A stretch of 40,547 nucleotides of DNA from a virus. Its lineage: Duplodnaviria > Heunggongvirae > Uroviricota > Caudoviricetes. The DNA is taken from IMG/VR virus record IMGVR_UViG_2617270967_000014; one strand, written 5' to 3'. The position numbers are program-made. Positions 15,001 to 18,000 of the stretch are shown here, piece by piece. Numbering within the stretch: the stretch's first letter is position 1; every line of letters starts with the position of its first letter.

Positions 15001-18000
15001 TTAATACTGGCTTTATCTGTCTGGACAAAGAAAGAACTCAGATGGCCTTCACCACCCTCACCCGGCCATTCCGCTATTCGCCAGTACAAACCAAAGGCAT
15101 ACTTGTTTCTGGTTGTCTCAAGATTGACGTTTTCGGGGATTTTAAACCGGACAGCAATTTCTCCGCCTTTTTCCAGTAAAAGTTTTGCCTTGTCTGCAGC
15201 AATATCACAGTACATTGACCAGGATTTCGCGCTGTTATTTTTCTCAATTCGCAGAGCTTTATTGCCGCTGTCATCAACCAGTGTGCGCCTGCCATACACA
15301 CCGTCCCAGCCATAGGGTTTCAGCTGATTGTCTGTAGCTTTTTTGGCATCGTAAAAAATTACAGACTCTGAGGTGGTAACCGGTCTGTCTGGAACAACCA
15401 CCCCGGCAGTACCATTAACAAACGCAGAAGACTTACCCGCGCAGCTCAGAATCGCCGTTGCCAGACGGTCGGAAATAATCCCACGGCGAGCCCATGAACT
15501 GAAATGGCTCGCCCTGTCCTGTGACGTCCAGGTGGCTGAGCTGTCACGCCATTTCGAACCGTAATAACCGATACCCGGAATGTCCGGGTCTTCTTCCGGT
15601 TTGTTCGTCGGCACATTCACCCCGTTCTCATCGGTCATGAACGGTACGAAATGGATATTCTTTTCCGTTTTATTTTTATAGCTGCCGTACACCGTCTGGT
15701 ACGTGGATTCGTTCTTCTGCTTCCAGAAATACGTCGTGTCCCCGCATATCCAGGGAACACCGCCAGCAGAGCTACCGACGCACTGGCCTGCCATATCCGC
15801 CAGGTCTGCACGGAATTTATCAACCAGCGCACCAAACTGTGCGGCATGATTTGCCGGCGTACCGCCAAAATCAAATTCCCCCTGCATCCACACCACGGCA
15901 AACAGCACATTTTTCGGGTTCTTCTCCAGTGCCGCTTTTGTTCGACCGATAAGGTCCTTATACAGCGGCTTGTCCACACCCCAGCGGGGTGAATTCTCCG
16001 AGGCGCCACTCGCGTCACTGTATGTGCCATCAGCTCCGGTGGTGAACGCTGAACCACCACGACAGCACGGAACCAGCAGAATGCCCGCATTCGCCGGTAT
16101 AAACGGCAGCAGTTTTTTGGCGATATGCAGCCCCTGCCCCACGGTTCCGTACTGCCCCTTTGACAGGTCCGCTTTCGGATGGTTAAGACGGCTCATGTCC
16201 TGCACATCATGCAGACAATGGTCCGCCGGAATGATGTCGTTATATTTGCATGCTGCACCGCCCGGTGTCACCGTACTGCGACGCGCTAACTGTTTAATAC
16301 GTGGATCAGGGCTGTCGAATGTATCCGGTAATGGCAGTCCCTCACCGTATGACATACCATTGGACTGACCAGCAAGCGCGATCACATAGTAATATTCTGG
16401 CGCAACAGAAGGCGCTGAGGTCGTCGGACGGTTGCCTGGCTCCTCTGGTGATGAGATGCTCCCCTCACTCACAACTGGCTGGATGAACTCCGCACCATAA
16501 CCAGCTGTCGAAATCAGCGCACTACCATAAGGCTGCCACCCTTCCTTCAGTTTTTGAGTTATTCGTTTCGCAAGGTCTGACGGCGACGCCGCCCTGACAA
16601 CATCATAGTGTTTAAATGCCATGAATCCTCCCGGCCGGGATAATATTGTGAGTAAAATAAGGAGCGGGCTGAAGTCCGGAAGTTACAGGACAATGGCAGA
16701 AGGGAGACTACAGCCCGCAATTCGAAAAAGGTCGCGCAGTTGCGCAGAGTGATTACTATGGGGTATTATTCGCCAGCTGAAATATTACTTCACGTTTCAT
16801 TGTTCATTCCTTGCCGCCCGCGTCTCCCAGCGCGGGCTTTTTTGTCCATAAGAAAGCCCCTCCGGAGAGGGGCTGGAGAGTGGCGCTATGTGCCATTGCA
16901 TGGTGCCGGGTGCCTCCCGGTGAGTTCAGCCCGGTGCCACTAAACCCGCGTCATTCTCGTTTTGATAATCAGAGATTATACCGTCACCAGTCGCCCCTCC
17001 GCTCAGGGGGATTCACCATGCAGTTTTTTCTAACAAATTCTCATCCGGGCAGACAACATTCAACTGACTTAATTGTGAGGTATGTAACATTCCCGTTGAA
17101 CGGATACAAAAAAAGCCAGCCACCAGGGGAGGCTGGCAAACTCGTAGAGCAAAATGCTGTTACGCAAACTTCGTTACAGGGTTATCCTGCAATACTTAAA
17201 ATATACAATATTTAGAAAACTAATAGTGCCATATGAGATTTTTAAGATTTTGTTATTAATTGCGGTCGTACCTTCCTTTCTGTGTACTTTCCGTATAGCT
17301 CACAGGATTCTGGGTACAAAAAAACCCGCGCATCGGCGGGTTCGGCTGCGTGGCAATGTAACCACTCTTATCATGATATGCAGATTTTTACGATCGTAAA
17401 CTATTTTTTCGCTGATAAAATACAGAGCTTCTCCCTCCCGGCAATTCACGCTCAACATACCGATCCATCTCAAGCCTCACTCCCAGCATCATCAGCATGC
17501 CTTCAACAATCCCCTCCGCTTTGTGAAGGCGTTTACCTATACAGGTGTCAGAGCACCCATGTTTCCGTGCCAGCGCCATGAACGTCTCCCCCAACACGTA
17601 GTAATCAACCAGCAAGTCATGCAGATCGCGATTGTTCCGGTAAAGGCGGGCTATGCACCCGCATATCACCATCGCATCATCGTCACAGCACTGTGGACGT
17701 GATTTTACTTTTTCGGGGATCAGTCCCTTAAATCCGGCAGCAATGGGCGACCATGTAACATCCTCATAGTTATTTACCGCCCATGCCCCCCAGCGCTCAA
17801 GAACCTGCCGGATATCACGCATCAGTATCTTTACCCCATCCGCGATGAACCATAAGGACGCCATTGACGACGGCGTGCTTTTTCGCATCTTTATCATCAA
17901 TGTATTTTCTGACTGTAGCACGATTGCAGTTCAGTATTCTGGCGACTTCTGTCTGATTTCCCCTGGTGCAGATCAGTAATTCAGGTATCGTTTGAATTTT

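Follow-up and report, generated by a model that had tools for sequence, protein, structure and literature searches.

In the lambdoid prophages Sp5 and Sp15 of Escherichia coli Sakai, the PR' late promoter fires constitutively in lysogens, and its transcript ends 258 nt further on at the terminator tR' (Sy et al., 2020; PMC7547250). RNase E cuts this transcript at a GU|AUU site at +173 and leaves a stable, Hfq-binding small RNA (sRNA) of about 74 nt, StxS, which activates rpoS and represses stx1B. StxS co-occurs with a 144-aa allele of the antiterminator Q, also in some phages that are non-toxigenic (PMC7547250). Here we describe the corresponding region in a stretch of 40,547 nt from a virus of the Caudoviricetes (IMG/VR record IMGVR_UViG_2617270967_000014), referred to as the window. 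An earlier note, made from the sequence alone, had pointed to a 765-bp spacer (16623-17387) between a Q gene and the esterase gene nanS-p, and had proposed either an empty cargo site of the Shiga toxin (Stx) type or a regulatory/sRNA region. Our comparisons suggest that both descriptions are true together. Very probably, the spacer belongs to a lambdoid prophage of the 933W type and is its late regulatory region, free of cargo, with a junction that is most likely old.

Other parts of the region have described counterparts as well. Convergent sRNA pairs at the moron site were already described for eight lambdoid prophages of Sakai (Tree et al., 2014; PMC4104026), and the presence of nanS-p in non-Stx prophages, O104 included, is cited in PMC10462455; a search of a limited literature collection for nanS-p together with O104:H4 gave no match. 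Every component, and the cargo-free state itself, is already described (non-toxigenic StxS-encoding phages; nanS-p in non-Stx prophages). The contribution made here consists of a base-level annotation, a correction of which hairpin is tR', and the identification of a convergent sRNA cassette. Homology, boundaries, structures and distribution were seen in this analysis, and for expression, processing, Hfq binding and targets we infer from Sakai Sp5, Sp15 and Sp4.

The late genes, including Q and nanS-p, are on the minus strand, and the spacer, whose coordinates proved correct, reads from right to left. The flanking genes and the point of interest between them are as follows.

17822-17388, minus strand: Q antiterminator gene of the 933W/H-19B type, 144 aa (142 of 144 residues identical to 933W Q; Pfam PF06530, 170 bits)
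16622-14712, minus strand: nanS-p sialate O-acetylesterase gene, with the ribosome-binding site (RBS) GGGAGG at 16632-16627 and the Pfam domains DUF1737, SASA and DUF6645
17107-17092, no strand: unoccupied moron site, a junction of about 16 nt (GTATCCGTTCAACGGG) between tR' and the sRNA module

Alignment to the Q-stx-nanS regions of Stx phages, which the earlier note had suggested, defined the cargo boundaries. On the left, window positions 17959-17109 (ninH-Q-PR'-tR') align without gaps to positions 3702-4552 of the 933W locus (L005) at 95.9% DNA identity, which bears out the assignment of Q to the 933W type. On the right, window positions 17078-15436 align to 6343-7970 of the same locus at 91.7%, and to the Stx2a phage Stx2_EC3283 at 96.2% with the same boundaries as in 933W. 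The feature order of the 933W record (pR', qut, two "possible" terminators, pT, three tRNAs, stxA2B2, L0105) matches that of the window, in which nanS-p occupies the same place as L0105. Between these flanks, Stx2a phages carry 1790 bp extra, made up of a methylase-gene remnant, pT, ileZ-argN-argO, a terminator and stx2AB; in 933W the insert reaches to 45 nt past the stxB2 stop codon. Stx-negative phages of the phi296 type carry 473 bp extra at the same point, with the methylase remnant and ileZ-argN-argO, and no toxin genes.

The tRNA-stx module of Stx phages maps to a single point of the spacer, at about 17108/17092 in the window, and we therefore conclude, from these alignments, that the spacer holds an unoccupied stx-type moron site. 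The site is found in three states with conserved flanks: empty (about 16 nt), tRNA only (473 bp) and tRNA plus stx2 (1790 bp). Related Stx and non-Stx prophages differ by self-contained cassettes at one point downstream of PR', as is typical of lambdoid moron insertion sites, and cargo exchange at this point is evident among them. The absence of toxin genes and tRNAs, reported earlier, was upheld: tblastn detected no similarity to Stx2A or Stx2B anywhere in the window (E<=1), ARAGORN found no tRNA in the whole 40.5 kb, and none was found by Rfam. The arrangement of a Stx-converting phage, with stxA and stxB between tR' and nanS-p, is not present in the window.

The insert of Stx phages opens with what is left of a DNA methylase gene, 39 codons from its 3' end (positions 1993-2114 of the aligned locus L001; 4553-4670 of the 933W locus). 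This remnant shares 54-81% identity with the C-terminal ends of complete methylases from SfV, cdtI phage, ASU11 and Klebsiella phages, and its PF01555 match is weak. Judged by these matches, the truncated gene looks like a recombination scar of acquisition. Direct repeats or microhomology at insertion or deletion boundaries were looked for by eye in the alignments, and none were found.

The upstream part of the spacer, next to Q, corresponds to the StxS region of Sp5 and Sp15. Its elements are listed here in the direction of transcription.

17373-17400, minus strand: late promoter PR' (-35 TTTACG at 17400-17395, -10 TATCAT at 17378-17373), detected by the promoter scan and coincident with 933W pR'
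17352-17359, minus strand: putative Q-utilisation (qut) site, by homology only (position of the "qut" feature in the GenBank record of 933W, transferred across the gap-free alignment)
17366-17109, minus strand: predicted StxS precursor (StxS_L), the 258-nt PR'-to-tR' transcript; 8 mismatches in 258 nt to both Sakai Sp5 and 933W, with no indels relative to Sp5
17315-17343, minus strand: early hairpin (stem 17343-17322) followed by U7, at +24 to +52 of the predicted PR' transcript, detected by the terminator scan (-21.9 kcal/mol, z = -3.5)
17193-17109, minus strand: predicted mature StxS (StxS_S), with the RNase E site GU|AUU at 17195-17191 and a predicted cut at 17194/17193 (fold z = -3.2)
17108-17139, minus strand: tR', the functional late terminator, with its stem at 17139-17115 and its T-run at 17114-17108, detected by the terminator scan

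The PR' sequence, with its hexamers and their spacing, is identical to that of Sakai Sp5. From the 258-nt distance between PR' and tR' and the GU|AUU site at +173, the transcription start is inferred to be 17366. On the Sakai sequence, a start 7 nt past the -10 element places GUAUU at +172 to +176 and position +258 at the last T of the T-run of the second hairpin. In the window, GUAUU at 17195-17191 likewise falls at +172 to +176 of the predicted transcript, and the published figures fit the mapping exactly. The 86-nt 3' fragment of StxS is identical to that of Sakai except for 2 nt in the terminator loop.

This mapping also settles which hairpin is tR'. The earlier note had assigned a tR'-like role to the hairpin at 17318-17340, whereas the tR' mapped in Sp5 and Sp15 corresponds to the second hairpin: the Term-seq 3' end at +258 (Sy et al., 2020) coincides with the end of the T-run of the 17139-17108 hairpin. 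The latter is carried as a terminator in the records of 933W, VT2-Sakai and other phages. The early hairpin, an 8-bp GC-rich stem followed by U7, is annotated in 933W merely as a "possible" terminator and does not coincide with the mapped 3' end of the Sp5 RNA. Candidate roles for it are a pause, partial termination or Q loading; Term-seq of the identical Sakai sequence puts the 3' end at +258. The hairpins that had been listed are all present, and a fourth, unlisted one is located at 16874-16855 on the minus strand. Altogether, the terminator scan returned 7 terminator-like sites in 16300-18100, compared with 1.9 +/- 1.5 in shuffled sequences, and the four strong hairpins within the spacer have folding z-scores of -2.5 to -3.5.

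Downstream of the junction, the remainder of the spacer is taken up by two sRNA-type elements that face each other.

17049-16844, minus strand: sRNA element of the STnc100 / EcOnc27 / EcOnc05 / PasD family (Rfam RF02076)
16846-16874, minus strand: terminator that ends the STnc100-type RNA (stem at 16874-16855, followed by a U-rich tail), detected by the terminator scan (-21.7 kcal/mol, z = -2.8)
16679-16843, plus strand: putative convergent RNA of the Sakai Sp4 EcOnc08/EcOnc21 type, with its terminator stem at 16816-16837 and T-run at 16838-16843, detected by the terminator scan

The RF02076 match covers the full model (positions 1-206) with 165.1 bits against a gathering score of 47 (E = 1.9e-37), and the 16874-16855 stem is the 3' hairpin of the Rfam model. 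The same family is found 75 nt downstream of stx2B in 933W and Sp5, and directly after stx2B in Stx2_EC3283, whereas in phi296 and Sakai Sp4 it follows the tRNAs. All five share the syntenic position, with the late promoter or moron on one side of the element and the sialate esterase gene on the other. The element has been equated with the Hfq-binding RNAs EcOnc27/sRNA103 of Sp5 (about 235/247 nt) and EcOnc05 of Sp4 (about 222 nt; PMC4104026, Table S2). Its PasD relatives also sit upstream of sialate esterase genes (literature set: PMC4104026, PMC7873438, PMC12711010, PMC12370729, bioRxiv 10.64898/2026.05.13.724894), and overexpression of sRNA103 in EDL933 raised fimZ and espA transcripts.

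Counted back from the terminator by the published northern sizes, the 5' end of the STnc100-type transcript may lie near 17083-17095, that is, at the cargo boundary. The sRNA would therefore belong to the phage backbone and not to the cargo. A TATAAT near 16990 had also been reported. The hexamer is real (16979-16974, minus strand) and lies in the variable internal loop of the STnc100 element, but we rejected it as a conserved promoter, as this loop differs in 933W, where the hexamer is absent, and no acceptable -35 element accompanies it. Rfam matches to Qrr (23 bits) and anti-hemB (19 bits) over terminators are far below the gathering scores and were regarded as chance.

The hairpin in the opposite orientation, which had been placed near 16813-16846, is real as well (16816-16843, plus strand) and can be assigned to the terminator of the convergent sRNA gene. 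The cassette is near-identical to that of Sakai Sp4, is also present in phi296 and Stx2_EC3283, and replaces AsxR, the convergent partner in 933W. Of 5426 complete E. coli genomes, 989 have it. The Sp4 copy contains the Hfq-CRAC peaks EcOnc08 and EcOnc21, of about 271 nt, on the opposite strand (Tree et al., 2014; PMC4104026, Table S2); these peak coordinates were mapped with an uncertainty of about 25 nt. If the RNA in the window had the Sp4 length of about 271 nt, its 5' end would fall near 16573, and it would be complementary to the RBS and start codon of nanS-p as an antisense RNA. The anti-sRNAs AsxR and AgvB (RF02703, RF02702), characterized by a conserved 3' region of about 42 nt, were considered for the plus-strand hairpin and rejected, as there was no Rfam match to them in 14400-17500 even at E<=1. 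AsxR itself scores 88 bits in 933W and Sp5, and in the alignment the window has another cassette at this position. HnrS (EcOnc10-12, 66 nt) was set aside on coordinates and Sp4 homology rather than on sequence comparison; its published copies are about 5 kb from the convergent sRNA sites of Sp9 and Sp10 (Table S2 coordinates).

Taken together, these correspondences suggest how the region may work. In the lysogen, PR' (start at about 17366) would fire constitutively, and transcription would halt at tR' (17139-17108). The 258-nt product would be cut by RNase E at 17194/17193 to yield Hfq-binding StxS, an rpoS activator in Stx phages. Upon induction, Q would modify RNA polymerase at PR'/qut, so that it reads past every hairpin of the spacer into nanS-p and the lysis genes. 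In Stx phages, the moron follows directly after the T-run of tR', whereas here about 16 nt join tR' to the backbone module. This module is predicted to be a convergent pair of Hfq-type sRNA genes, STnc100/EcOnc27-like on the late strand and EcOnc08/21-like on the opposite strand.

The empty state of the site could be ancestral or the result of a loss, and the distribution of the junction bears on this question. Of 5426 complete E. coli genomes, 87-88 carry the exact empty junction. The O104:H4 outbreak lineage, FORC_069, ML35 and others match it at 100%, and O103, O145, O111 and further strains at 95-99%; FORC_069 and ML35 have this junction alone. The tRNA-only junction of the phi296 type was found in 38 genomes. 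In an alignment of four empty loci (the window, O103 RM8385, LZHX12 and deer strain 48), the mean column identity was 96%, with flanks that differ by up to about 10-12%. The contexts of the block formed by StxS, tR', the junction and STnc100 also vary. It follows a different Q gene in O103 RM8385 (L009 2799-3254), and in deer strain 48 hsdM/hsdS stand in place of Q upstream of PR' (L011 2726-5544). In LZHX12 (L010 1741-3302, 3325-4941), the block is followed by a second, diverged copy of STnc100 and nanS-p in tandem. The wide distribution in changing contexts and the methylase scar favor an old toxin-free arrangement over a recent loss of stx. Judged from these alignments, the empty junction most likely represents an old arrangement that has recombined widely, and the tRNA-stx cassette would have entered it later, in the Stx-phage lineage.

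A recent origin from a Stx or tRNA-only phage that deleted its tRNA-stx cassette and kept its flanks intact would agree with the 95-97% identity of the flanks to Stx2a and phi296-type phages. Loss of stx from Stx-producing E. coli (STEC) is a known phenomenon, and O104:H4 genomes also carry a true Stx2a prophage (two matches per genome) as a possible recombination partner. This origin nevertheless appears improbable to us, since the identical junction of about 16 nt recurs in these 87-88 genomes across many serotypes and sources, and is conserved even where the flanks are about 10-12% diverged, where Q is of a different family or where hsdMS lies upstream. Moreover, neither edge of the Stx-phage insert contains a counterpart of the junction bases, the alignments show no direct repeat or microhomology, and the insert itself opens with the truncated methylase gene. 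An ancient single deletion of the cassette would be a further possibility. A different kind of alternative is that the spacer encodes small proteins on the plus strand. The earlier statement that it has no open reading frame (ORF) stands as far as conserved frames are concerned, but not literally: there are two antisense ORFs, of 81 aa (17154-17399, plus strand) and 65 aa (17018-17215, plus strand). Both match PHROG families at E ~1e-50, and some phage records list them as hypothetical proteins. The families are of unknown function, however, and are made up of near-identical ORF calls from Stx phages. In the O103 RM8385, LZHX12 and deer strain 48 homologues, which are 6-20% diverged, the frames are broken by indels, frameshifts or stops. 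ORF65 spans the cargo junction and cannot exist in Stx phages, Pfam gave no significant match for either frame, and PGAP annotated nothing between Q and the esterase in O104:H4. We rejected a coding role for these frames, which is highly improbable.

The sRNA module could also be read differently, with the STnc100-like and plus-strand elements acting in cis only, as a structured leader, as insulating terminators, or as antisense control of nanS-p. Consistent with this, the promoter scan of the minus strand (17373-16623) did not reveal a convincing conserved sigma-70 promoter upstream of the STnc100 element, tR' lies merely about 20 nt upstream of the estimated EcOnc27-type 5' end in the empty state, and a plus-strand RNA of the Sp4 northern size would overlap the RBS and start of nanS-p. 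On the other side, the Sakai Sp5 and Sp4 homologues are discrete Hfq-bound RNAs on northern blots of uninduced cultures, vesicle RNA of two STEC strains yielded an STnc_100 amplicon, and the relatives PasD1 and PasD2 have RIL-seq targets in enteropathogenic E. coli. On balance, we consider an exclusively cis-acting role unlikely. Still more can be read into the junction. It may preserve an ancestral state of the Stx locus, with the U-tract of tR' abutting an STnc100-type unit, possibly via a conserved TTCAAC-17-CACAAT motif in the junction. A compact hub of three sRNAs would result, made up of StxS, the STnc100-like RNA and the convergent EcOnc08/21-like RNA, with the plus-strand RNA as an antisense regulator of nanS-p translation or late read-through, and the tRNA-stx module would later have landed in the only "safe" gap, of about 16 nt, between terminator and promoter. 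This proposal is a speculative one that we think doubtful; if true, it would explain why stx is bookended by Hfq-binding sRNAs.

Several points weigh against our preferred interpretation of the spacer as an old, cargo-free late regulatory region with sRNA genes. What is said of promoter activity, of processing by RNase E, of Hfq binding and of regulatory targets is carried over from Sakai Sp5, Sp15 and Sp4 throughout. The early hairpin has the hallmarks of a strong intrinsic terminator, and the model of a 258-nt transcript does not account for it. The negative promoter scan matters here as well: the STnc100-type copy might be made by read-through alone, because the stx2B-proximal DNA that lies upstream of its estimated 5' end in Stx phages is absent here. 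The case for insertion against an ancient deletion draws on the distribution and the methylase scar instead of a rooted phylogeny. Finally, the empty junction occurs in 0 of 50,697 phage records, so such prophages need not still be viable phages.

Beyond the spacer, segment 14600-18100 of the window matches a prophage of E. coli O104:H4 2011C-3493 at 99.86% identity, and there the counterpart of Q is annotated by PGAP as "antiterminator Q family protein". The closest phages overall are the stx-negative phi296, phi315, phi367, PPwrbA_EC3734, TL-2011a, Nil3 and Lahn2, with 97.2-97.4% identity on both flanks. NanS-p is 74% identical to 933W L0105 overall and almost identical over the first ~390 aa. 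The C-terminal ~245 residues (DUF6645 region, 14712-15450, minus strand) are only distantly similar to L0105, so that the gene contains a mosaic breakpoint. A weak match of the Esr41 type (14632-14706, plus strand; 20.7 bits, E = 0.88), accompanied by a terminator on the plus strand, separates nanS-p from the DUF1378 gene, in the position where the PasA/PasC sRNAs are reported, between esterase and holin genes.

We also note some features elsewhere in the prophage. Rfam detected two copies of a module of C4 antisense RNA, isrK and c4-a1b1 target (20191-20389 and 21776-21974, minus strand). O104:H4 DNA (L004) aligns here in overlapping pieces, 3398-4457 to 21485-20426 and 2892-3508 to 20398-19785 (91%), which suggests a duplication in the window. 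A sok antitoxin RNA (23838-24012, minus strand, 110 bits) adjoins a region that aligns at 97% with the toxin-antitoxin genes hokD and doc / RelE-ParE of O104:H4. The interval from the lysis genes to the terminase holds an ORF of opposite orientation (11801-12415, plus strand), which corresponds to the O104:H4 "lipopolysaccharide core heptose(II)-phosphate phosphatase" and is probably a second moron of the prophage. An sRNA-Xcc1 match in Rfam (3335-3420, plus strand, 73 bits) is far from the late region.

At base resolution, the analysis places the sRNAs that flank stx, with StxS upstream and EcOnc27/STnc100 and its convergent partner downstream, in the phage backbone and not in the toxin cargo. 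Strains such as O104:H4 should thus still obtain StxS, which activates rpoS in Sakai, and a NanS-p esterase from a prophage that lacks the toxin. For the evolution of Stx phages, the widespread empty junction and the methylase scar point to a concrete pre-insertion site. The main value of the analysis lies in the annotation, and nothing in it should surprise a specialist.

Among described systems, the Stx2a phages 933W and Sakai Sp5 have the order Q-PR'-StxS-tR'-ileZ argN argO-stx2AB-EcOnc27/AsxR-nanS-p. The window shares with them Q (99% at the amino acid level), an identical PR', the StxS precursor (97%), the same tR', the STnc100/EcOnc27 element, the position of nanS-p and the almost identical N-terminal two thirds of the esterase. 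It differs from them in that it does not contain the 1790-bp cassette, that the partner of STnc100 is not AsxR, and that the C-terminal domain of NanS-p is diverged. With phi296, phi315, phi367, PPwrbA_EC3734, TL-2011a, Nil3 and Lahn2, it has in common the Sp4-type convergent cassette and the absence of stx, but these phages keep the 473-bp module of methylase remnant and ileZ-argN-argO after tR', and the window has neither part. The dyad EcOnc05/EcOnc08-EcOnc21 of Sakai Sp4, which lies upstream of a homologue of nanS-p (Tree et al., 2014), is 85% identical from the STnc100 5' end to the start of nanS-p. Unlike in the window, the upstream context in Sp4 consists of an AraC-family gene and tRNAs. 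The similarity of Sp4 to the stretch from PR' to the early hairpin is weak (75% over 84 bp), and there is none to StxS_S or tR'.

The window can also be likened to lambda, in which a constitutive late promoter near Q is followed immediately by an intrinsic terminator (PR', 6S RNA and tR'), and Q-dependent read-through leads into the lysis genes. Unlike in lambda, Q in the window is a 144-aa protein of family PF06530, and the terminated transcript is predicted to be 258 nt long and would be processed into a trans-acting sRNA, as in the Sakai prophages.

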